NCBI GenBank assembly: GCA_003140935.1
Contig: PLLJ01000034.1
Location: 79,505-143,504 of the forward strand
Length of the DNA: 64,000 nucleotides
Direction of reading: 5' to 3'
From: Candidatus Omnitrophota bacterium
Lineage (GTDB): Bacteria > Omnitrophota > Omnitrophia > Omnitrophales > Aquincolibacteriaceae
The position numbers and the translations under genes were made by a program. The notes under the pieces were generated by a model, which saw only the letters and a program-made list of their open reading frames with translations, did no database searches and had not been told where the DNA came from. This document shows positions 9,851 to 64,000 of the stretch, piece after piece (position 1 is the first letter of the stretch; the number at the start of each line of letters is the position of its first letter).

Positions 9851-9949
9851 GGGCTTTGCCTTTTCGTATCTGTTGTGTGGGCTGGCGTTTATAGAAGCCG
9901 TAGTATATCGAAAGCCTTTTTCACTGTCAAACCAAAACAACCTCGTGTT

Positions 9950-11242
9950 TCAAACCTTGAGAAGCCGGTGAAAATGGTCCGTAAAGGCAGGGTAAGAAGT
10001 CGCGATACATGCTGTGTCTGTCACCGTGATCGTCCCCTTCGCGGCGAGGCTTGCCACGCCCATGCTCATTGCCGTCCGGTGATCCCCGAAACTTTCGACG
10101 GTTGCACTATGGAATCTCTCCACGCCCCGGATCAGAGAACCGTCCGGAAGTTCCTCGATCAATGCCCCAATAGCCTTGAGATTCCGGACCATGGATTGAA
10201 TGCGATCGGTTTCTTTGACGCGTAGCTCTGCCGCTCCCGAAATAAGACTTTCTCCTTCTGCGAGCGCCATCGCAACCATCAAAACAGGCAATTCGTCGAT
10301 CAGGGACGGGATTTCTTCATGCGTAATCCCAGTACCTTTTAGCTTCGCGCCCCACACACGGATCGTCCCCATCGGTTCAGGGACCGTCTGCGTGATCTGT
10401 GTTTCAACCCTTGCGCCCATACGTTTCAGAACTTCAAGAAACCCGGTACGCGTGGGATTGAGTCCCACGTCCTGAACGGTCACTTCAGCCCCCGGGGTCA
10501 TCGCGGCACCCACGATAAAAAAAGCGGCGGATGAAATATCGCCCGCAATACACGCATGGATCGGCAAAAGCATTTCCGTCTTTTCGATGATAAGATGGTT
10601 GCCGATCTTTTGGAAACGTGCACCGGTCGCCTCAAGAAAGCGCTCCGTATGATCCCGCGACGGAATCGCTTCACGGACGATCGTCCTTCCCTCGGCGTAC
10701 ATCCCCGCGAAAAGAAGCGCGGACTTGACCTGCGCACTCGAAAGCTTGTTATCGAAATCAATCCCGCGAAGTTTACCGCCGCGGATCGTAAGCGGCGCAA
10801 AGTTGCCGTTGTCTTTGCCTTTGATCTGCGCGCCCATCTGTTTCAAAGGATCGGTCACGCGGCGCATCGGCCGGACCGAAAGAGACGGATCTCCTGCCAA
10901 CACGGCTTCGAAGCGCTGACCCGCCAGGATCCCCAATAAAAGTCTCAAGGAAGTTCCGGAATTTCCGAGATAAAGTTCCTGCCCCGGAGCGGAAAGCTTA
11001 TGAAGCCCCTTCCCCGATATCCGGACCTTGCCCGTTCCTTTTTCATGCTGGATCTGAACGCCCATCCGGCGCATCGCTTCCAGGGTGTGAAGACAATCCC
11101 CGGCTTCCAGGAAATTCTCATAAACGCTCTCCCCTTCGGCTAAAGCACCGAAAAGGACCGCTCGGTGGGAAATGGACTTATCTCCGGGAGGGGCATAGGT
11201 CCCGCAAAACCGGCCGGGTCCTGTGAACGAAAGAGAAGGCAT
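9950..11242 (-). CDS. aroA: 3-phosphoshikimate 1-carboxyvinyltransferase (EPSP synthase)
   Basis: PGDKSISHRAVLFGALAEG, the AroA counterpart of LPGSKSxSNRALLLAA, and about 430 aa. Start adjusted to MPSLSF. Confidence 0.8.
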   Translation of the reverse strand: MPSLSFTGPGRFCGTYAPPGDKSISHRAVLFGALAEGESVYENFLEAGDCLHTLEAMRRMGVQIQHEKGTGKVRISGKGLHKLSAPGQELYLGNSGTSLRLLLGILAGQRFEAVLAGDPSLSVRPMRRVTDPLKQMGAQIKGKDNGNFAPLTIRGGKLRGIDFDNKLSSAQVKSALLFAGMYAEGRTIVREAIPSRDHTERFLEATGARFQKIGNHLIIEKTEMLLPIHACIAGDISSAAFFIVGAAMTPGAEVTVQDVGLNPTRTGFLEVLKRMGARVETQITQTVPEPMGTIRVWGAKLKGTGITHEEIPSLIDELPVLMVAMALAEGESLISGAAELRVKETDRIQSMVRNLKAIGALIEELPDGSLIRGVERFHSATVESFGDHRTAMSMGVASLAAKGTITVTDTACIATSYPAFTDHFHRLLKV

Positions 11243-45629: not shown

Positions 45630-45710
45630 AAAATCGCCTCCTTGAGCTGATCAACAGGTGCTTTCTTCAGAAACCACATCGGTGCCCTATTTGCCTACAT
45701 TGAGAATAAG

Positions 45711-45785
45711 CGTCCCCAAGGGGATTTGAACCCCTGTTACCAGGATGAAAACCTGGTGTCCTAGGCCGACCTAGACGATGGGGAC
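45711..45785 (-). tRNA. tRNA-Glu (anticodon TTC)
   Basis: Minus strand: GTCCCCATCGTCTAGGTCGGCCTAGGACACCAGGTTTTCATCCTGGTAACAGGGGTTCAAATCCCCTTGGGGACG. Classic Glu architecture; no encoded CCA. Confidence 0.85.
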
Positions 45786-45931: not shown

Positions 45932-48900
45932 TTACGCCGCAGTGCGGATCTGGAGATATCCTTGGATCGCTTGAAGGACGGCCTCCAGCAGGGTCCCGTG
46001 ATCATACTCGGAAGGTTTATGAATGTTGAACCGGTCCGTTTCCCACTGTTTGTCTAATGCCGCATAAAGCACGGTCGTGAGGGCTGCAGCGAGAGTCTTC
46101 ATGTCACCCGCGTCTTCCGTCACCCAACGGCTTCCAATCCCCTTGCGATAGGCGACCTGGTCGAAGGATCCGTTGTTACGCGCCACCAAAGCGTCTACCT
46201 TTTGAGTTCCTTTCAACAAGAACGGGTCCTCCTGCCGAGAAGAGACGATCTTGAGTTGATCGGGTGCCAATGTGATCCCCTCCTGTTTGGCTAGACCGCG
46301 GATCTTTTCACTGATGTCTTGAGTCGTTTTGTCGTCAGTATCGATGTTCATCAAAAGACGTCCACGCAATGATACAAGAGCTCCCAACACCACCGTAAAA
46401 TGTGTGATCAACTCCGACCGGTCATTCTCCGTAAGGCCCGTTAAATGAACATGGACCCGAGGTCCTTCAAGAGAAGTTCCGGACGGAAGCGCGGCGCCGG
46501 CCGGCACCGCTTTTTGGAACGTCTCCAAAACCTTCGCCAGCCGTTCATTCGAGATCCCCGAAGCCGCCGCTTGCATGAGAACTTTCTGTGTCATTTGCCC
46601 CACGACCCAACCCTGCGCGGCTTCCAACCCCGACAGTATCACTTGCCGGCCTTCTACAGTCACGGAAACTTGCTTGGGAAGATAAAACGCGATCCCCGAA
46701 ACGGAGAAAATGGTGTCCACGCTATCTGCGGCATCAACGACAGCATCCCGCGGAAACTCCGGTACGTCCAGGGAAAATGCCTTATTCGAAGCCGCAAGCT
46801 GATCTCTTGCCACAGCCGTTGGTCCCCGGAGTTCTGAACGACTCGGTACGCTTTCCGCCTTCTCGAACACGAACTCCTCTTGATGGAACTGCAATCCTTT
46901 CGCCGCCTGGATCATGAATGCTAAACCTTCTTCCAAATGAAAGAGTTCGCGACGGTGGCGGGGACCGATCGCGTCCCTGGATCCGGCCTGAATGCGGTCC
47001 ACCAACTCCCCGGACTCGAGGCGCTCCGTCTTGTGCCATCCCTTCAGATATCCTTCAATATACTCCGGCCGTTTTTCTCTCGCGGCGGGAGGATTCCACG
47101 GCTCACGCGACCATTCGAGGATCAGATCCGGAAATGTCTCCACGATCCCGCGAAATCCCGTGTACCCCGCGGGGATCTCGTCGAGAAGGCGCCGGACCGC
47201 GAGCGTCCAGACCTCTGTGGTCTTTTGGATATAACCCCGGATCGCCTGGTTATCATGTTTCCCACGAAGCGGATCATACCGATAGAGGGACGTTTCCCAT
47301 CCGTTATAGATTTCCTGAAATGCCACGGCTTCTCCCGCCCACACATTCAAGCGATTGCGTAAAGGCGTCAAAACCTTCCGGTCCGTGACAGAACCTTTAT
47401 AAGCTGGACGTGAGTCGAACCCTGCAAAGATCCGGTCCGCGATCTCCTTGGCCGACCGGATGCGTTCCGGATCCGCGTACCGGTTCTTTTTCATGTTTTT
47501 CTCGAGAGCCGTCAGTTCCTTAAACAATAAATTGAAATTCGAGTAGAAAAAGGGCGGCTTCCAGGTCCCGGTCATTCGTGCGCGGATAGCCTTCAAATCC
47601 AACATTCCGATCGCGTTCAAAAGCGCGGCGTTCTTTTCAAGAAGTCTGCCCTGCAAAACCTCCAGGTCCCGCGCATTTTCCTCCGTCCGCACTTCCGAGC
47701 GTTTCCCTTCCCGTGAGACCTTATCTCTTATGTCGGAACGTGCGGGTGTTTTCACCAGATCGCTTAGAGAGGTGACAATATGGTCGGCTATTTCACGAGA
47801 GCGGGCGGCCTCTTTGGCGGTCGCCGGCATTCCCACGAGCCAGAATTGCCGTCTAACTTCCGGTTTGATCCTCACTGCCCGATCAATGGCTTTGGAACTA
47901 TCATCAACGAAAATGGCTTTGGCTTCGGGAGGCAAGTCGCCTAGCGCCTTTGCCAGGACACTTATTTTTTCATCCAACGTGTTGACAAAAACGAGATCCT
48001 TTTCCGGATCCTCGAAATATTTCAGCAATCCGGTTTTTTGAATAATGGGTAAACGGAATTCTTTTTTCGATGTCGAAATGATCCGGACCCGCTTTCCCTG
48101 GTCTTTAGCTGCCTCAAAAAATTCCATCACCCCCGGCATAAGCAATCTTTGTCTCACTTCCTGTTCCGGCAATTGAAGAATCGAACGCAGGTCTTCATCT
48201 CTTCTAGTTTCGTAAAGTTTCAGGAAATACCCGGCAGGATCATTTATGCCAGGGAAAACAAGGTCTTTCCGTTCATTGAATAGAGTCTTTAAATTTTTTT
48301 CAGTAGATTCGCCGAGTCTTTGGTCATAAAACGCGGTTCCCTCCCGCAGCGCCTCGGGATCCGGCTTAAACCCTGAGGGATCCGCGATTTGATTGAAGAT
48401 CATTGAGTAAATATAAGCCGCGTGTTTCCGGTTTAAACCAATGGTGTCCAAAACAACCCCGTCCAGGTCCAAGTAAACATCCGTTATTTCATCGAACGAG
48501 AACGGCGCCTGATGATCGCCCCGCATCTCGGAACGCCGGGGCCAATGAAGAAAATACATCTCTGGGTTTTTAAAAATGGGTCTTAAGAAATCGCCGCGGA
48601 CAGGTTTCTTTAATAGATGAACCGGATGTTGTTCTTTTAACTCCCCGAGGATTTTATCTCCCACCTCATCGCCCATAAAAACGATCGGAACTCTCTCTAA
48701 ACCCGGCATCTTGACAGCCTCCAAGATCCACTCCGGCCCTGTCATTCCGGACATGGGGACTTTAGTAAGAATAGCGTCCGGTACCCCTTGGTTGAGCGCT
48801 TGCAGAGCCGCTTCCCCCGAAGATACCGCCGTGACCTTAAAACCATCTAAATTGAGCAACAGTTCCAGAGCTTCTAAAGCACTTTCCCTGTCATCAACGA

Positions 48901-60900: not shown

Positions 60901-63900
60901 CTTCGGAACGAACGGAAAAAGGTTGTCGCCCTTCTGTTTCCCGCACCGCTTGCCGCGAACCCTGCGAACCGGCGACGGGTCTTTTTTTCAAAAATAGATA
61001 ACGCCCGAGAAGATCGCCCACCGTCCACAAGGCACTGACAATCGTTCTAAGATCTCGTGGTTCAGACGGCTTTTCATCATTGACCCGCCGATAAGCCCGG
61101 TCATTCCACGCCACTCTTCCATCGAGCGGCACAACGTCCCAACCCGGGAATGGCATTCCATGCCGCGATGAATCATAGTCATAGAGGAGCACCTGCCCGG
61201 TAGGCTTAACCTCACGGCGCAAAAGTTGAACGACGTCCTGATTTGCGGTCCAAAGTCCCTGAGTCGTTGTCGCGCGAGGCATCGCGCCGGTCCAGAAGTA
61301 AAAGATCAGGTCGGCCGTCTTGAGGTGATCCTGCCGCACGGCCGGATCAAAAAAATCCCCCTCAACAAAAACGGCGGGAGCAAGGTCCATCTCGCCCGCA
61401 AGTCTGCTTTGAACGGCGAGGCCAACCTGGATCAGCTTCGGATCATGTTCAAAACCAACAGCTCGAGCACCCATGAGCGCCGCCAGGAGCACAACCCTGC
61501 CATCCCCGCTGCCAAGGTCCACAACCCGCTTGCCCGGACCAATCCCGAGGGATTGCAATCGTGCCCAAATTTCATGCAAAGGCGTCGGCTTGTAGATACC
61601 AGCGCTCGTCGGAGCCACGCCGGAACTCATGCCCACTCTCGCAAGCTCCTCTTCAATGATTTGCTCGACCCTGTCAAGCAGGACGGTGACCTCATCCGCC
61701 AGCAGAGTGCCTCCCCTCGCTTCGGAACGGGCTTCATCGGTTTTTGTGACAGCGGCAGAGGTTTTCATCAACGCGTCCCCACCAGCGATCAAATCTCTTC
61801 GCACGCGGTATATCTTGGGGTTATCAAAATCCCAGATCACGAAATCGCACTGCGCGATCAGCGCGTTGAGCAATTCATTTTTATCTCTTTTGAATTTCTC
61901 TTTTGATAGCGCATCTTCAGGTTCTGGAAGACTGAATATCGGTCCTAAAACAGCCACGGTGACGAGTCCCAGACGCCTGCCATTTTTTAATTCATTCACA
62001 TTGTCATCGAATAAAATCCCGGGGCCTTCTCGCTTGCTCATCTCCGTTCTAAACTCTTTTTCCTTGTCACCGACCGTGCCAATGTAAAATGGGATGCCTT
62101 GCGTGTCCGGAGGCATACTGATTTTTAAGGAACCGCGATTTAAATATCCGAGCGCTTCCGGAGAACTGCTGATAATGGCAATGTGACGCTCTTTTTCCTG
62201 GATCCTGTTCAAAAAATGTCTTGCGCCACGCACGAGGGCCGAAGGATTCGAGTCGATCAAGTCCTGCTCTTTATCGAAATACAGTTTCTGATAACGCGTC
62301 AAAACATCCGGAGTAACTTCCCATCCTCCGGCGCGAACGGCGTCCCGCAGGTCGATCTCTGAAAGAATCCTCTCAGACAAAGCGTTTCCCTTGATTGGCG
62401 GGATGCCGTATTCCGCCATTTGTTGAAGCGCAAATACCAGCGCTTCCCGGTGGGCATTTTCAATATACAAACTGGTATGGTGAAGCGTCTCATCCACGTC
62501 GAAAAGAAAGGTCTGGTATGTGCGAAGCCATTTCTCCAAAGATTCGGCAGGATCTTCGACGAGAAGCGGATGGCCGGCGAGTTCTTTTTTAACCCTTCCA
62601 TTTGAATCTTGCTGGATCGCCCAGAAAAAATCCCGGGGCGATGATTCGGCCGCAACAGGCTCGGCTCGCACCTCGGAGCGCTTGCCCTCCGTATCCCCTT
62701 CCTTTTGTCGATGATTTCTCTCGGGATTGAAACCTGCCATTCCTTGTTTTAATTTTTCTCTGACAGTATTCACTAAGTCAACGGAAACATTCATCGAATG
62801 GGTTATTAATTCATTGGTTTCTCCTCCTAAAATTTTGTCTGCTATTTCACGCTCAGTTCCCTGGTCAAGCGAATTCAGGATATCTGTTAATCGTTTATAA
62901 AATTCACGCCGGTAGGTATACCAATAAGGATCGATCTCGGTTTTGACCAGCCCCCTTTTTCCGTCGACCCATCCAGCTTGCAAAACAGGATTGCCGAAAA
63001 CCGAGAACGATTCGACCGTTTCAAGATCAATCATGATCGGCATTGCCTTCCGCCGGCCTGCCTGATCCTTGGCCCCAGGAACCCAACGCACCATGGGCCC
63101 TATCTGGAAGGCCTTGTAAAAAGTATCTTTCCCTTCCTCCAGACGGACCACGCACTGGACCCACCCATTGACACGGTCCGCCGCGATCACTGTCGCCGTC
63201 CATTTTTCGCCTGGTTTCGGGTAAGACCCCAGAACGGACCAGGTATAGATGTAATTATGGATATAAAAACGGACCGCTCCATAGCCATTCAAAAGTCCTA
63301 CTTTCAAACCCGGCAACCGGGCAACATCCTGAACATTCACTTCGGTTTTGCTGCCGATGGCTTCGATAATCCTTGAGAGCGGCCGGAGAACGGCCCGTTG
63401 GCTCAGCATACGCACTTCCACATTCGGCCGCCCTAAATTGCTTTTCAACATTTTGGATTCCGGCGAGACCTGGAAATAAAATATCTTAGGCTCGGCTCCA
63501 GACTTCTCTAAACTGATGCCGAATTGATACACACCATCCTTGACTCCCCCGTCGATAAGGTAGCCCGTGCGGTCTGCATAAGGCTTAAAGCTCAGGGTAT
63601 AGGCATAGCTTGCATCGCCCGGCACAGGATAGAAGACAAAATCCCCCTTAACAGGCGTTGGTTTGCCAAGCAATATTCTCTTGAAAGACCGTACCTTGTC
63701 GGGATTCTGGACCCAATCATAATCCGAGGGTTTCATCACAATTTCTGAAAGCGTATACAGCCCCGGACGCTCTAAAACCTCAAACACAGTGTCCGGCTCA
63801 CCTGATTTCGCTCCAACCCGCGCTTCCAAGGGACGACGATGGGGACCAACCTGAAACGTTTTTGGGAACGTTTCGCGACCTTGTTTGCGGAATTCGACAT

Positions 63901-64000
63901 GGAACAGGTACGCGCCATCCCGAACACCGGCCTCCAGGATCACCATCTCCCACCCGCTGTCGGCAAATCCAAGCATGAAAGGCAAATATTGAGACGCTCC
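45932..64000 (-). CDS. giant multidomain protein (>6017 aa in window; 5' end beyond window edge)
   Basis: Uninterrupted minus-strand reading frame of 18,054 nt, still open at the window edge (...GASQYLPFMLGF). Contains recognisable HAD, SAM-methyltransferase, protein-kinase-like, NAD-epimerase and receiver-like domains, plus TM segments and tandem repeats. Confidence 0.85.
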   Translation of the reverse strand, partial: GASQYLPFMLGFADSGWEMVILEAGVRDGAYLFHVEFRKQGRETFPKTFQVGPHRRPLEARVGAKSGEPDTVFEVLERPGLYTLSEIVMKPSDYDWVQNPDKVRSFKRILLGKPTPVKGDFVFYPVPGDASYAYTLSFKPYADRTGYLIDGGVKDGVYQFGISLEKSGAEPKIFYFQVSPESKMLKSNLGRPNVEVRMLSQRAVLRPLSRIIEAIGSKTEVNVQDVARLPGLKVGLLNGYGAVRFYIHNYIYTWSVLGSYPKPGEKWTATVIAADRVNGWVQCVVRLEEGKDTFYKAFQIGPMVRWVPGAKDQAGRRKAMPIMIDLETVESFSVFGNPVLQAGWVDGKRGLVKTEIDPYWYTYRREFYKRLTDILNSLDQGTEREIADKILGGETNELITHSMNVSVDLVNTVREKLKQGMAGFNPERNHRQKEGDTEGKRSEVRAEPVAAESSPRDFFWAIQQDSNGRVKKELAGHPLLVEDPAESLEKWLRTYQTFLFDVDETLHHTSLYIENAHREALVFALQQMAEYGIPPIKGNALSERILSEIDLRDAVRAGGWEVTPDVLTRYQKLYFDKEQDLIDSNPSALVRGARHFLNRIQEKERHIAIISSSPEALGYLNRGSLKISMPPDTQGIPFYIGTVGDKEKEFRTEMSKREGPGILFDDNVNELKNGRRLGLVTVAVLGPIFSLPEPEDALSKEKFKRDKNELLNALIAQCDFVIWDFDNPKIYRVRRDLIAGGDALMKTSAAVTKTDEARSEARGGTLLADEVTVLLDRVEQIIEEELARVGMSSGVAPTSAGIYKPTPLHEIWARLQSLGIGPGKRVVDLGSGDGRVVLLAALMGARAVGFEHDPKLIQVGLAVQSRLAGEMDLAPAVFVEGDFFDPAVRQDHLKTADLIFYFWTGAMPRATTTQGLWTANQDVVQLLRREVKPTGQVLLYDYDSSRHGMPFPGWDVVPLDGRVAWNDRAYRRVNDEKPSEPRDLRTIVSALWTVGDLLGRYLFLKKRPVAGSQGSRQAVRETEGRQPFSVRSEVRGGGRVATARLQRIDRGFQEYQDSFDSGETDFFLTEVQPVSVVRFQKIVKWLNVFNIPKSVLNLFLRGALIFILVAISGNPVIAIPGGIIRAALVFLFHSGGDLVSRPPRKIDLEKKKFQKRVLEAMRKRMNEASSLEEKRKLAQTPRFFGGYYFLAEYVLNELEKIPTSTQFFATDDHPSLREQLVDVFGACVDQIIRWKSTGAQHQKDWALLTRLFEFLTDPDQRVVVAAVRWLGQIESKIDDVTRNEIEKKYFEIATSQSSEVSRGAVVRGLRFIRTPKSFERMLEIIESDPSPWVQTYATEVIQFLLESGQYDARAVQYFYGPRLIRVLMKKASGEEGGKSSYIMRRVGSLKALAFLSWYEPNVVNNFRDILLHDTNAAVQEVALWALARAYAEYPQLSEGVDDLLKALLLYMEGKHEGQHNFLLANYARRLLGEFSRDAFNPLLKQKAIAASLERESAPQDGEDTPVILVAMDPLVPTTGPDAQKGAESDKVFDVVKIGQERGWTVLMAPRYRVDRDKAKAQNHFLSGTNLDLPRLVHAVNRLRKLLPIRVPSRDDKRNKADRHSTSPVIPKKGGPIVIFVNARELYEISLQISNLSPQIVLLQDHPELFHQRWRGMTVVKKYDPQDLIDLVEAAASQARQQATKAGTQLAAREIEEQRPSSVRSESREGEGLAAQRSPEERFRRFFGASSDRLLRWLASRASQPISSYEIRSERITDLWVYRRIVEKHTLRMGENTFTWFTKRYEGASLLRKFFLSWIRHEAIVTRHAFRLGLSPRTFMVVDRDNYFLTLISQTGHPLSEPINEVKAAAVGNALGRLHRGGVIHGDVVERINALIPRLEHFYVDQGTVRFIDFGEGKIGITSRNGFWERLRFALARKLEASKLGRALAHQAEDSIKDRVLQAYSRAYKEAYLGHVPAGGHQAESQRSEIREGAALSNPLKGSSPFHIGWNMYRWASYDREVAESLGIRLTTRATGLYYFLIELFGIKPEEAHAKGFDRLFWLWSQYMMVGDDLLDRFGKRLSVDEITEMLAEVDRTHKIDLRLRSRVAEAELRAAPISAVFPSDPRDGIQIIDSFPERFEQALSLTPLHETERQAMRDAFWQNSRVFLHSYLLERRGGLFPPLRDMTNIFTEKDDFRPLMQIATKVFRKFAPGQFRTRESLLHQAALFCQYLDDWMDYFSDYSVQPNMLWALAKERHPEEFQKLSAWVTPRSAASLTAANGALFRLAPKTTREYLLKARLVFRQALLSQKSIPRFMFAYFFFRYLWRTLSGVRIHRHAPDLAPQNGGEKVGHSEVREKQAQSAFTGARLVKLDPLRNRRALITAGIGVSMVMLSILSFLYQHWVLGLMSLVPSAGILFLSMEIFFGLNRLGFYSAYRWVTSEREIPIGLISHLVVLRSFGGPPFAELHLDRNEHLWKRQPGETPEQRKYRSTKMIYQNLLELARALRDEDASLKGIVFIREKFHVLAKSAWRQKYEDMGYDFDPVVVRRLTPFYRRWLDRVFRAPTAIISRENLIKAIPLLEQYVQVLDERLRTISDPGKGADDSTARSEARSEMRVEELGEAALKGLMIFRHGPFKKSQQEYISRLAVKIENEMNWRGPGTWGFHSAEIKKLSLQLATNAMNIVAATDGSLEAIKALFREEGSLFDAALVASLQDMVNEEAAAKKIVDQFDLLAAAFLRDFEDYPEKDKVLRQEYSNVMNMLVLYRRGYNFLRDYLGEEGIRDGILKVAGQPVSPGILSNLAKLVISLDKEWDIVHQSVKVKQQYLTAVFSVAATGSRGFTLLKQAMELWKDEGVTWAGMTDELKKQYLIAVYAVSIRGPKALESMEAVLKLWKQEGVVFSELTPELQKQFFTAVYKVAMTGSAATDAMEEIFKAWKKEGVVWTEMSNVLKQQYMIAVYVVAMRGKPAVKAMLEVLELWRADGVLWRGLSDSSKRQFLVAVYEAAWPGKEGVQAMKEVMGMWAEIGATWRGIQEASLGEGKNRENYEALKNQYLVAVYNVAMKGKTSLKKMKAVLALWKKEGVAWNGLDEVMQKQFLVAVYRVAVGDPEGPEAMGEILEFWRGQGVTWAGLDPKLGQQFMRMVYNIAMRGKDAAAVLPQVTAFLREEGINWETLSMELKNQYLTLVYCAAMRGMAGLVLMKNIMALWKSEGVAWPTLDSEALQSQFLTAVSSVAIRGQESLDTMKDVLALWHEAGVGAFQELQLARRNFLVAVFEVSVQGKDALEAMKGILALWKKEGVVWGNLSNLSRIGYLTAVYNAAIEGEEGRVSTEAALELWRKNGVIWSDLGNEALQRRFMVAVYNTSMFGHSGVAIMEQALQMWRDEGVVWSGLPADQRGLFLITVYFASVSGVGSTAILEHSFRTIKEKFGPGQSLRFMRLISSWIRLGENSEKVDAMLGRIQKAPGDERGQLIEQTRLELGRRVFEKLREYASKKRKSVTTVALDEDVTPAEDPGDIQRSEVREKASRVEKAAAEARNYRRQVGDWESEGGATARGPQAPTINDRSEMRTEERFVDVTDLTLEALQNFRLMTERGSLDAAPVSMGLLTEPVEVPLRLPAPEGVGRRGFLRATGTVGVLGAALWALGGATTLAGQVRKPAVPAKPAPADAASQAMRAMNQIRYAASLEPLQFNDWNGTKGNAIATVLGELNSFIEQWKKMPKQGAAPEKLGEIHRVFFLALAKRINSGTKLPEGYGLDYVRAIARLIHKDLPQFFAAQGLAFNVKGTAVENLTVQTTRGGQVVRSQDYFYPTLAMPDKYFFVLKANARRDLKVPAQVLGDEKTPLVLVQPVQIRIGGGQVQFSPYAEQWREGQNNELGFADGTTAFLRADLIEQALKYDRASLGKIDLGFLAGDFSLRDIIQGVRVGEPTVSQGKKTVKVISYPVTDLSSAAGYAAMKLMTAVTRTLDKGKTVFDFGLWQLARYLETAKHEITHVNDSHGNLWRTIWQMSQPASDHRVAQEDTNQAEVLIEQNARLEALRKVPAVSLVGLLATVQTGGRPVTNSDKAQAGILDAVTRELNRDPARYGIVIDAGLKLGRAIQITAQFYRIVEKPDRVEALYAAVRKALAIDARAQALASKYASLDPSASSSGRSEMREEELSVGQGERLPQDIYSVEMPVREFMTALKLEETRIVRRFREASSGLYATEVEIAHLDGRPLAVKGPHVLRELFDFDRQRLHGKSARFYVLYDDENLPLAIFPKEGQAPADVREHYNEMEFLTYSFLDLTDYRTPYDLLRTFGHPGDRAKWKEHALSLGVLKEKVAAFKNYYEQVLLKNAGEFPMTGDVSVGQHPFIYSEFDAREKKIKSVSFGPEFFLSDHPDRHSSLSDFNYDTGEDVQARERIFLDSGNPRAVFIRFWSVFNYMSSSYADGPFRRHVYDTVRETVPAMHAGDVIGDLGTGPGVMTWLAWIAAGDRRDEFEYAAADINPLAAANAETNLKYILKVPHVSVTVHDNLVSPEKTRAFPKPLRVLIINAPAYGYKDPGEPTGNVTLFDFHDGGKPGYQFWDGLIDGLPLSMDRERSMMLAWNFTGDGAAQDDPLFGRFENIPGVSSVRWGRSLPGETTAHHTYIAQFGRPESPRSEARTGSSISEVDKGMLKEKQVVLTGAGGNIGSVLFDELLGKAKHVTPLLLPAEIEPYAGYGFENAHKATIKTTELPDPKIQKEMVAQNDVIFHLAMWGAAIGAEKLSDPLILPEFLYKNVLPTAIFVRAAENAPHKPRIVFASTMRVYDLMDLKEQLSLEESGLKLDPELEAWIAMAVEFFTSISDLTDKAQALERVQGFLREHAPSERYTKNPDALAKIVSERIIDRYSNGISLRLGNVYGPAYDPQKTSLNRRLVHRYFFQVLHGEKEIRFDRVPKNLIYVDDVAHAFIAAATADLGPLGGQRVINVGASTRHTGEEVARTIVRVAGAKIALVPETDSKEKPRLLMDTQRMKSVLGLDPAGFVTLEEGVRRTWTWMNQHPDVFTDTWSNRFFRSEAREDRRPLEKPIKTILVVDDRESALEALELLLNLDGFKVTAVSSGEAALQALNQGVPDAILTKVPMSGMTGPEWILEAVKMPGLERVPIVFMGDEVGDKILGELKEQHPVHLLKKPVRGDFLRPIFKNPEMYFLHWPRRSEMRGDHQAPFSFDEITDVYLDLDGVVLDTIGLNRKHAAYIYSMIFNQIADPSGFKPDPEALREGTAFYDQRLGESTEKNLKTLFNERKDLVFPGINDPAGYFLKLYETRRDEDLRSILQLPEQEVRQRLLMPGVMEFFEAAKDQGKRVRIISTSKKEFRLPIIQKTGLLKYFEDPEKDLVFVNTLDEKISVLAKALGDLPPEAKAIFVDDSSKAIDRAVRIKPEVRRQFWLVGMPATAKEAARSREIADHIVTSLSDLVKTPARSDIRDKVSREGKRSEVRTEENARDLEVLQGRLLEKNAALLNAIGMLDLKAIRARMTGTWKPPFFYSNFNLLFKELTALEKNMKKNRYADPERIRSAKEIADRIFAGFDSRPAYKGSVTDRKVLTPLRNRLNVWAGEAVAFQEIYNGWETSLYRYDPLRGKHDNQAIRGYIQKTTEVWTLAVRRLLDEIPAGYTGFRGIVETFPDLILEWSREPWNPPAAREKRPEYIEGYLKGWHKTERLESGELVDRIQAGSRDAIGPRHRRELFHLEEGLAFMIQAAKGLQFHQEEFVFEKAESVPSRSELRGPTAVARDQLAASNKAFSLDVPEFPRDAVVDAADSVDTIFSVSGIAFYLPKQVSVTVEGRQVILSGLEAAQGWVVGQMTQKVLMQAAASGISNERLAKVLETFQKAVPAGAALPSGTSLEGPRVHVHLTGLTENDRSELITHFTVVLGALVSLRGRLLMNIDTDDKTTQDISEKIRGLAKQEGITLAPDQLKIVSSRQEDPFLLKGTQKVDALVARNNGSFDQVAYRKGIGSRWVTEDAGDMKTLAAALTTVLYAALDKQWETDRFNIHKPSEYDHGTLLEAVLQAIQGYLQIRTAA
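47710..48520 (-). other. giant protein: HAD-superfamily hydrolase domain 2
   Basis: Motif I YLDLDGVVLDT, downstream RIISTSKK, and motif IV-like AIFVDDSSKAID. Confidence 0.55.
48540..48940 (-). other. giant protein: receiver (REC)-like domain with Lys in place of the phospho-acceptor Asp
   Basis: KTILVVDDRESALEALELLLNLDGFKVTAVSSGEAALQAL..PDAILTKVPMSGMTG aligns to the CheY-like ..PDLVLLDxMMPGMDG with D replaced by K. Confidence 0.45.
48960..50130 (-). other. giant protein: NAD-dependent epimerase/dehydratase (extended SDR) domain
   Basis: KQVVLTGAGGNIGSVLFDELL (Rossmann GxGGxxG) and a downstream Y...K region (YTKNPDALAK), about 390 aa. Confidence 0.5.
50150..50800 (-). other. giant protein: SAM-methyltransferase-like domain 2
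   Basis: AGDVIGDLGTGPGVMTWLAWIAAGD...AAADINP...LRVLIINAPAYG. Confidence 0.45.
53110..53195 (-). other. giant protein: internal twin-arginine (Tat)-like signal/TM segment
   Basis: GVGRRGFLRATGTVGVLGAALWALGGATTLAGQ: an RRxFLR motif, then a hydrophobic h-region, then an A-x-A-like site. Confidence 0.4.
53800..55610 (-). repeat. giant protein: about 14 tandem 43-aa repeats (k.QyL.AVY.VA..G......m...L.LWK.EGV.W..L...l)
   Basis: For example KKQYLIAVYAVSIRGPKALESMEAVLKLWKQEGVVFSELTPEL and QKQFFTAVYKVAMTGSAATDAMEEIFKAWKKEGVVWTEMSNVL. Conserved at protein level; divergent at DNA level. Confidence 0.7.
56700..56990 (-). other. giant protein: transmembrane hairpin (2-3 predicted TM helices)
   Basis: ITAGIGVSMVMLSILSFLYQHWVLGLMSLVPSAGILFLSMEIFFGL, then IPIGLISHLVVL. 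Confidence 0.5.
58110..58880 (-). other. giant protein: protein-kinase-like domain of the Kdo/WaaP/RIO type
   Basis: GRLHRGGVIHGDVVERINALI (catalytic loop HGD...N) and TVRFIDFGEG (DFG-equivalent). Confidence 0.5.
59650..60250 (-). other. giant protein: HEAT/PBS-lyase-like helical repeats
   Basis: VVAAVRWLGQIES..., PWVQTYATEVIQFL and HDTNAAVQEVALWALARAY are typical short HEAT-like repeat signatures. Confidence 0.4.
60915..61712 (-). other. giant protein: class I SAM-dependent methyltransferase domain 1
   Basis: GKRVVDLGSGDGRVVLLAALMGARAVGFEHD (motif I with acidic post-I residue), VEGDFFD, ADLIFYFW. Confidence 0.55.
61735..62665 (-). other. giant protein: HAD-superfamily hydrolase domain 1
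   Basis: Motif I FLFDVDETL (DxDxT) at the domain N-terminus. Downstream are ISSS (motif II-like) and GILFDDNVNE (motif IV-like). Confidence 0.55.
62690..64000 (-). other. giant protein: repeated small modules (G..DG.Y.F.v...k.G.e..pK.FQVgP), unknown fold
   Basis: AGVRDGAYLFHVEFRKQGRETFPKTFQVGP, GGVKDGVYQFGISLEKSGAEPKIFYFQVSP and VVRLEEGKDTFYKAFQIGP recur in the N-terminal about 430 aa seen in the window. Confidence 0.4.

Follow-up and report, generated by a model that had tools for sequence, protein, structure and literature searches.

RSExR, a junction signature and candidate processing site in a modular giant-protein family of Candidatus Omnitrophota

Whether a very large bacterial protein made of unrelated enzymes works as one chain or is divided into its parts, and whether a short peptide repeated along its length marks the places of division, is the question raised by a 64,000-nucleotide stretch of Candidatus Omnitrophota DNA (assembly GCA_003140935.1, contig PLLJ01000034.1, positions 79,505 to 143,504), referred to here as the window. 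A minus-strand open reading frame (ORF, 45932..63985) stays open to the window edge at 64000, and the start of the giant protein, P0001, lies outside the window. Of its 7,831 amino acids (aa), the C-terminal 6,022 have their codons in the window, together with the stop. The pentapeptide RSE[V/M/L/A/I]R recurs along this protein. As judged from the sequences, it is the junction signature of a modular giant-protein family of Candidatus Omnitrophota and stands at both ends of every exchangeable cassette. With a probability of about 0.5, it may also be a lineage-specific processing site at which the giant precursor would be cut.

Occurrence and placement of the pentapeptide

Copies in the window were counted in the frame of the giant gene with the pattern [RH]S[ED]xR, and they are located by window amino acid and base positions (Table 1). 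The count gave 16 RS[ED]xR and one HSEVR, 17 in all, the full protein having 22 copies. Only 0.26 RS[ED]xR copies were expected from composition, 2,000 residue shuffles yielded a mean of 0.26 and a maximum of 3, and the Poisson probability of at least 16 copies is about 1e-23. The excess claimed in a preliminary description of this DNA was therefore borne out by the shuffle control, and all the motif positions that it listed were correct to about 10 bases. A six-frame scan of the 64-kb window found the motif in no other real coding frame.

Relatives were sought with 5,000 aa of P0001, then with HMMER using its last 449 aa, and then by a genome scan with an alignment of the N-terminal module (N-module). 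A distant relative, P0002 (5,454 aa), whose best local alignment covers 11% of the query at 50% identity, carries 9 RSE[VL]R. The parts common to P0001 and P0002 are a 660-aa N-terminal module, a module with a HExxH motif, a receiver module and the last 450 aa, and the pentapeptide is aligned at the ends of these modules. The HMMER search revealed 37 proteins and, in the full-length members (1.2-7.8 kaa, thousands of aa), the C-terminal module (C-module) is always at the extreme C-terminus. The genome scan gave 59 loci, nearly all in metagenome-assembled genomes of Candidatus Omnitrophota, several paralogues often being present in one genome, sometimes as head-to-tail arrays. A word-index search for homologues of the N-module yielded mainly fragments. 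Nearly all the large members (38 proteins; loci L006-L043) have R[SA]ExR at 40-120 times the expected frequency. The 59 loci added 159 further copies, nearly all in L006-L043, for a total of 347 distinct copies from 64 proteins. One member, P0010 (6,580 aa), has 9 RAExR and zero RSExR, and P0038 has partly RAExR.

The minimal architecture is N-module, motif, cargo, motif and C-module. The N- and C-modules are conserved among P0001, P0002 and the other members, and the cargo between them differs almost entirely. A protein of 1,199 aa encoded on a 139-kb contig (P0043) has its N-module and C-module separated by about 250 aa, without motif-delimited cargo and without RSExR.

The 347 copies were gathered by the pattern R[SA]ExR, and the residues R, E and R are thus fixed by the search. 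At the free position 2, Ser was found in 84% of the copies and Ala in 16%, and position 4 was occupied by V (28%), M (23%), L (16%), A (9%) or I (8%). The linker alignment proposed in the preliminary description confined conservation to these five residues, the flanks being essentially unconserved (at most 0.26 bit per position), with slight trends towards small residues at -1 to -3 and Glu/Gly at +1 to +3, in linkers enriched in P/S/G/A. The placement of the motif at module borders in homologous giant proteins, also raised there, was found wherever a module has a homologue. A check covering the window-protein modules with a homologue elsewhere (HExxH, receiver, pre-C, C and the segment 1971-2331) revealed that the homologous modules carry the motif on both sides, at start-5 and end+1, regardless of which modules adjoin them. 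Motif and module thus behave as a cassette. The last two modules were modelled with AlphaFold from a 17-sequence alignment (mean predicted local distance difference test, pLDDT, of 74). In this model RSELR occupies residues 148-152, within a segment (133-154) of pLDDT 33-36 between domains of pLDDT 75-94, and the motif is accordingly predicted to lie in a disordered inter-module linker.

Peptide conservation, sister signatures and the conserved chassis

The preliminary description had argued that the codons differ between copies and that the peptide is therefore what is selected. The conclusion holds, on the evidence of cross-species junctions, but the codons within the gene are biased. In the window copies of P0001, the first Arg is CGT in 11/16 (background 17%, p = 6e-6) and Ser is TCC in 11/17 (background 25%), with AGY in none. 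The family as a whole has CGY for the first Arg in 80% of copies (background 44%) and TCN for Ser in about 95% (background 68%), with AGY almost absent, a bias that suggests shared linker descent. At seven orthologous junctions between P0001 and the loci L006, L007 and L038, synonymous changes affect most of the four fixed codons and non-synonymous changes affect none (for example CGG TCT GAA ATG AGG versus CGT TCC GAG GTC CGG), while the adjacent linker residues differ. P0002 uses AGA, AGG and CGN for Arg and TCG, TCT and TCA for Ser in the motif, and in a family alignment of 17 sequences with a mean identity of 34% the columns R148, E150 and R152 of the motif show no variation. Purifying selection on the motif peptide is clear from these sequence comparisons.

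Distant superfamily members without RSExR have their own over-represented short signatures at the equivalent places. These are ARMA in isolate WC_9 (L052 and L057, with 7 and 6 copies; p = 2e-13 and 6e-12), GARL[AS] in SRP278252_co1_282 (L059 and L062; 7 copies, p = 3e-11, and 4 copies) and A[AKS]SLG in OFTM55 and NC_groundwater_1338 (6 and 5 copies; p = 5e-9 for 6), its loci being L044, L047, L049 and L039. Like R[SA]E[VML]R, they have a small residue at position 2 and Leu/Met/Val at position 4, a single ANSLG copy in L039 being the exception at position 4. Paralogues within a genome share one signature type despite an N-module identity of 27-38%. For a site co-evolving with a sequence-specific reader, the signature would be expected to be strict inside each lineage and to vary arbitrarily from one to the next, as it does here. 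The similarity of the N-module also tracks the motif type, so that a reader acting in cis and one acting in trans are not separable from the comparison of paralogues.

The N-module, of roughly 600 aa, is predicted to have an alpha/beta fold with a parallel beta-sheet core as in TIKI proteins. No family model matched it significantly, PF04187 (ChaN/Tiki) giving E = 0.0083 and 16.6 bits against a cut-off of 27.7, and neither the NCBIfam search of the chassis modules nor the PDB profile searches of the N- and C-modules produced a match. Across about 60 modules of all lineages, the conserved residues are D65 (61/63), H67 (63/63), E95 (62/62), R473 (52/56) and H503 (58/58). These residues correspond, with matching spacing, to the catalytic set of RRSP (Glu3900-x-His3902, Glu3930, Arg4001 and His4030) and to the His85/Glu113 pair of Bcr135 (PMC6254334). 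The catalytic spacings are +2, +28 and +30 in the N-module and +2, +28 and +29 in RRSP. The N-module therefore resembles the TIKI, ChaN, erythromycin-esterase (Ere), TraB/PrgY and RRSP proteins in its fold core and in a 2His/2Glu-type set with a conserved Arg, and differs from them in a helical insertion of roughly 370 residues and in a first acidic residue that is Asp and not Glu. With this RRSP-like catalytic set intact, the N-module is probably an active hydrolase and, belonging to a superfamily that includes site-specific endopeptidases, it is a candidate cis protease.

As for the other end of the chassis, the C-termini of P0002-P0038, L027-L048 and P0001 (45935-45946, minus strand) finish in [AS]A (IRTAA, ILVSA, VLASA, IQRSA) with an invariant final Ala, an ending that presumably recalls C-terminal Ala-Ala degrons or secretion tags. 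Two or three giant paralogues stand head to tail in L030, L032, L035, L036, L048, L016 and L027, every copy having a signal peptide, a TIKI-like head and an [AS]A tail of its own.

Possible roles of the motif

The chassis of these proteins consists of a signal peptide or anchor, the N-module of about 600 aa with the predicted TIKI/ChaN/Ere/RRSP fold, and a C-module of about 290 aa at the extreme C-terminus. It carries a variable string of enzyme and regulatory cassettes, each with the pentapeptide at its two ends, within a short linker predicted to be disordered. The motif travels with the cassettes. In the reading to which the probability of about 0.5 applies, it would be read by a sequence-specific factor, and the giant precursor would be cut at the motif into separate proteins, as a bacterial polyprotein working in the manner of a MARTX toxin or a viral polyprotein. 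The protease most readily suggested is the N-terminal TIKI-like hydrolase, which would act in cis or on paralogues; a separate protease acting in trans is equally possible. Among the functions considered in the preliminary description, that of a cleavage site is the best supported, by the disordered linker, the strict pentapeptide, its lineage-specific forms and the universal TIKI-like head; cleavage itself is what we infer from them.

Several points weigh against this reading. Some motifs are overlapping or in pairs 8 or 41 residues apart, and tiny peptides would result if every site were cut. The codon bias indicates that shared descent or some nucleotide-level constraint contributes to the recurrence of the motif. 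The structure model of the N-module, built on a five-sequence alignment, is of moderate quality (mean pLDDT 59), esterases and a haem-binding protein are further members of the TIKI superfamily, and we know of no preference of RRSP or TIKI proteins for a site like RSExR. The N-module stands behind a signal peptide and may be in a different compartment from the junctions. The C-module, predicted to be alpha/beta, has no protease-like fold and no informative structural neighbour, and among the family modules no protease fold other than the TIKI-like module was identified.

The main rival is that the motif is bound and not cut, a docking partner, a chaperone or a chassis module recognising it so that the giant chain is folded, compacted, tethered or assembled. 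Five sharp residues in disordered linkers, lineage variants and selection on the peptide fit binding as well, and closely spaced or overlapping copies are easier to accept than for cutting. We nevertheless consider binding alone unlikely, as a peptide-binding domain was not recognised in any of the universal modules, multivalent docking motifs are usually looser, and the strict placement at both cassette ends together with a conserved hydrolase head fits processing better. There is a small chance that the motif is the footprint of cassette gain, either from one ancestral linker or from a coding 15-mer serving as recombination joint, the peptide having little present function. The codon bias in the window copies and across the family, and the movement of cassette and motif as units between architectures, would agree with such an origin. 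A neutral footprint would erode, however, and the peptide has been kept through synonymous changes while the adjacent linker decays, its columns being invariant at the low mean identity given above and P0002 drawing on nearly the full set of Arg and Ser codons. A plain flexible linker that nothing reads specifically, which the location in disordered inter-domain segments would allow, is scarcely credible: a passive linker fails to explain a strict pentapeptide with unconserved flanks, the predominance of Ser at the free position 2, the enrichment of the motif in the large members, or the wholesale exchange of the signature in other lineages.

A signal acting on the RNA or the ribosome (internal start, RNA processing site, pausing or peptide-bond skipping) would require no protease, and it has a slim chance of being correct. 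Position 4 is Met/Val/Leu/Ile in 75% of the copies and its codon is ATG/GTG/TTG/CTG in 69/153, GGAGG-like purine runs often follow the motif in the window gene, and some post-motif modules begin like independent exported proteins (P0002, MTQVQSKIDRRLFLK). Against it, the other four codons vary synonymously and over half of the position-4 codons are non-start codons (GCN, GTY, ACN, TCN) that cannot initiate, the distance from the motif to a possible start is not conserved and, to our knowledge, bacteria have no peptide-bond-skipping peptide. Internal Shine-Dalgarno sequences and start codons after the motif were rejected as a general explanation, the purine runs of the window gene having no counterpart in P0002. 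It is very improbable that the Ser of RSExR is a phosphosite, with the kinase and HAD phosphatase modules of the same chain adding and removing the phosphate. This proposal of the preliminary description is in line with the basic/acidic context of the Ser and with the presence of a Bud32-like kinase and two HAD modules, but Ala replaces Ser in 16% of the 347 copies and in all 9 copies of P0010, the kinase module is absent from most family members, and the sister signatures are not built on a conserved Ser (none in ARMA, an optional last residue in GARL[AS], a different context in A[AKS]SLG).

A further extension of the cleavage reading, which we regard as doubtful, is that these proteins are exported self-processing effector polyproteins. 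The signal peptide would export the chain, the TIKI-like head, related to the MARTX endopeptidase RRSP, would cut it at the lineage-specific pentapeptide, and at least a dozen cofactor-dependent enzymes would work only in the cytoplasm of another cell. The released effectors would include kinase, phosphatases, methyltransferases, acetyltransferase, epimerase and receiver domains, and the Omnitrophota are taken here as ultra-small, probably predatory or parasitic organisms. If this were true, RSExR would be the first usable parsing rule for Omnitrophota giants, possibly including proteins of at least 10 kaa.

Modules, genomic setting and known systems

Table 1. Window coordinates of the giant ORF, the junction motifs and the modules of P0001 (motif residues are numbered by window aa).
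Feature	Position	Strand	Remarks
Giant ORF	45932..64000	-	C-terminal part of P0001
RSEVR	62666..62680	-	aa 441
RSEAR	61715..61729	-	aa 758; separates HAD-like from methyltransferase module
RSEVR	60896..60910	-	aa 1031
RSESR	58880..58894	-	aa 1703
RSEIR	58091..58105	-	aa 1966; RSEMR at the orthologous junction of L006
HSEVR, variant motif	56993..57007	-	aa 2332; orthologous module of L006 ends beside a motif
RSEARSEMR, overlapping double motif	56213..56239	-	aa 2588-2596; RSEAR 56239-56225, RSEMR 56227-56213
RSEVR	53492..53506	-	aa 3499
RSEMR	53354..53368	-	aa 3545; ortholog RSEVR in L006 and L007, 4/4 fixed codons synonymously changed
RSEMR	51596..51610	-	aa 4131; aligns with RSEVR of P0002 and RSEMR of L006
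RSEAR	50132..50146	-	aa 4619; Rossmann start of epimerase module 18 residues later
RSEAR	48944..48958	-	aa 5015; N-terminal border of receiver (REC) module
RSEMR	48521..48535	-	aa 5156; C-terminal border of REC and start of HAD module
RSDIR and RSEVR pair, 8 residues apart	47687..47740	-	aa 5421 (47740-47726) and aa 5434 (47701-47687)
RSELR	46826..46840	-	aa 5721; precedes universal C-terminal module; predicted disordered
Universal C-terminal module	45935..46825	-	297 aa, alpha/beta, ends in [AS]A; always at extreme C-terminus
Conserved pre-C module	46841..47686	-	282 aa, helical bundle
HAD-like hydrolase module	47741..48520	-	PF00702, E = 4e-7
Response-regulator receiver module	48536..48943	-	PF00072, E = 1e-13
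NAD-dependent epimerase/dehydratase module	48959..50131	-	PF01370, E = 1e-15
HExxHxxxxH module with interior Tat-like (twin-arginine) RRGFLRATG... segment	51611..53353	-	common to P0002 (two copies), L006 and L007
Bud32/RIO-like small kinase module	58106..58879	-	lacking in most family members

Divided at its motifs, the protein falls into segments 8 to 902 aa long. Those with recognisable content hold one enzyme or domain type each (HAD, S-adenosylmethionine methyltransferase, HEAT, Bud32-like kinase, NAD epimerase, receiver and HAD), and a GNAT domain and another methyltransferase are encoded upstream of the window in P0001. In the Rossmann-type modules the motif stands 12-25 residues ahead of the first strand. 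The motif thus separates enzyme modules, as had been proposed, but the claim that it marks every domain boundary is too broad: it marks cassette junctions, several motif-delimited segments contain more than one domain, and some 13 tandem 43-aa repeats forming a block (LWKxEGVxW..L....KxQFL.AVY.VA..G; about 53900-55520, minus strand), lying within one motif-delimited module, has no internal motif. The sole database match of this block is weak and DnaD/DnaB_2-like.

No Pfam or NCBIfam match was obtained for the module at 51611-53353, in which the interior twin-arginine-like segment RRGFLRATGTVGVLGAALWALGG is followed by HEITHVNDSH (HExxHxxxxH), one of the two P0002 copies being preceded by MTQVQSKIDRRLFLKVAGLAGLGAFFAASS. 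This could be an exported metallopeptidase-like module. Two transmembrane hairpins (60599-60718 and 56798-56920, minus strand) each begin 30-65 residues past a junction motif. Modules starting with transmembrane or signal-like segments after the motif were only weakly enriched (9 observed against 4.8 expected, p = 0.045), and this trend was not relied on. A cargo core common to many members (P0002, P0014, P0011, P0022 and the consensus of a family alignment) and absent from the window protein comprises a PEP-utilising-enzyme-like, an HPr-like (G[IL]HARPA), an ACT-like and a heptosyltransferase-like (GT9) region and tandem receivers, a composition that suggests a phosphotransfer or regulatory theme.

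The P0001 gene is present on contigs of 967 kb and 289 kb from two JGI (Joint Genome Institute) metagenome samples and is therefore no assembly artefact. The JGI annotation probably misses the first 38 codons of the gene (L004 about 9887-10000, outside the window on its upstream side), and the extended frame opens with a Sec-type signal peptide or anchor, MTTLFQRPWTRRGISLFVAIVFTMTTLTGGLPQAFA/SA, as in other family members. The neighbours are ordinary chromosomal genes (mraZ/mraW/PBP of the dcw cluster, ligA, mnmA and a glycosyltransferase). A tRNA-Glu(UUC) at 45710-45785 (minus strand) lies about 150 bp 3' of the giant-gene stop, and three more tRNAs (Pro, Glu, Pro) are found within the window. 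Single in-frame stops break the otherwise continuous giant ORFs of L021 (about 9470) and L040 (about 16769), which may reflect sequencing errors, pseudogenes or read-through.

Giant genes are characteristic of the Omnitrophota and their products include the longest proteins in that literature, where Archaeovorins and Dockerin-type giants (West-Roberts 2023) and 'multi-enzyme metabolic clusters' (Nielsen & Lui 2026) have been described. The P0001 family shares with them the phylum and a membrane-anchored chain tiled with unrelated Pfam domains (methyltransferase, GNAT, HAD, REC, glycosyltransferase, HEAT), and P0001 shows the features of a multi-enzyme cluster, namely Omnitrophota origin, many Pfam families, a signal peptide and two transmembrane hairpins. 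The described giants have at least 10 kaa (catalogue threshold 10,000 aa), whereas the P0001 family spans 1.2-7.8 kaa and has a defined chassis. Post-translational cleavage has been suspected for other giant families from C39 and S8 domains, one paper calls the cleavage points unknown, and whether such proteins act as one chain or in pieces is an open question in that literature. In the Omnitrophota giant-protein literature searched, no junction motif is reported and no description of RSExR was found, and full-text searches of writings on Omnitrophota gave nothing relevant on polyproteins or TIKI. The P0001 family would then be a bacterial modular polyprotein with a defined junction signature, RSExR being the best candidate so far for the cut sites of such giants. 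A conserved junction pentapeptide together with a universal TIKI-type head turns the question of one chain or pieces into an experiment, since the motif predicts exact neo-termini in metaproteomes. It also gives a splitting rule for structure prediction and annotation, and its distribution suggests that multi-enzyme proteins evolve by cassette exchange.

Among known systems, the MARTX toxins have conserved ends, a variable effector array and processing in inter-module linkers (PMC6315884). The P0001 family resembles the MARTX toxins of Vibrio in its giant single chain, conserved ends, shuffled enzyme modules and unstructured linkers, and RRSP, a MARTX effector, has the same TIKI fold as that predicted for the N-module. 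It differs in having the TIKI-like head behind a Sec-type signal and a cargo with receiver, HPr-like and PEP-utilising modules, and in that cleavage is putative here. MARTX processing occurs after Leu and is not known to involve a strict pentapeptide. No RTX/glycine-rich repeats (HemolysinCabind) or Peptidase C80 were matched by Pfam in any P0001 or P0002 segment, and identity with a MARTX toxin was ruled out on this basis.

The large precursors of the Porphyromonas gingipain/adhesin polyproteins and of Mycoplasma hyopneumoniae P97/P102 (S/T-X-F|X-D/E) are cut at short motifs lying in disordered stretches; they are adhesin or protease precursors with few products and looser motifs, whereas the P0001 family has arrays of unrelated enzymes. 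With the viral polyproteins (picornavirus 3C, flavivirus NS2B-NS3), in which the junction motif co-varies with the protease, the family has in common one ORF for many proteins and a short junction motif that differs by lineage. It is unlike them in being encoded by a cellular chromosomal gene in a housekeeping neighbourhood, in that no viral protease fold was found, and in that its division into separate proteins is presumed. If the chain is not cut, the motif would still demand a sequence-specific reader; if it is, the P0001 family would be a cellular analogue of the viral polyproteins and MARTX toxins, on a far larger scale.

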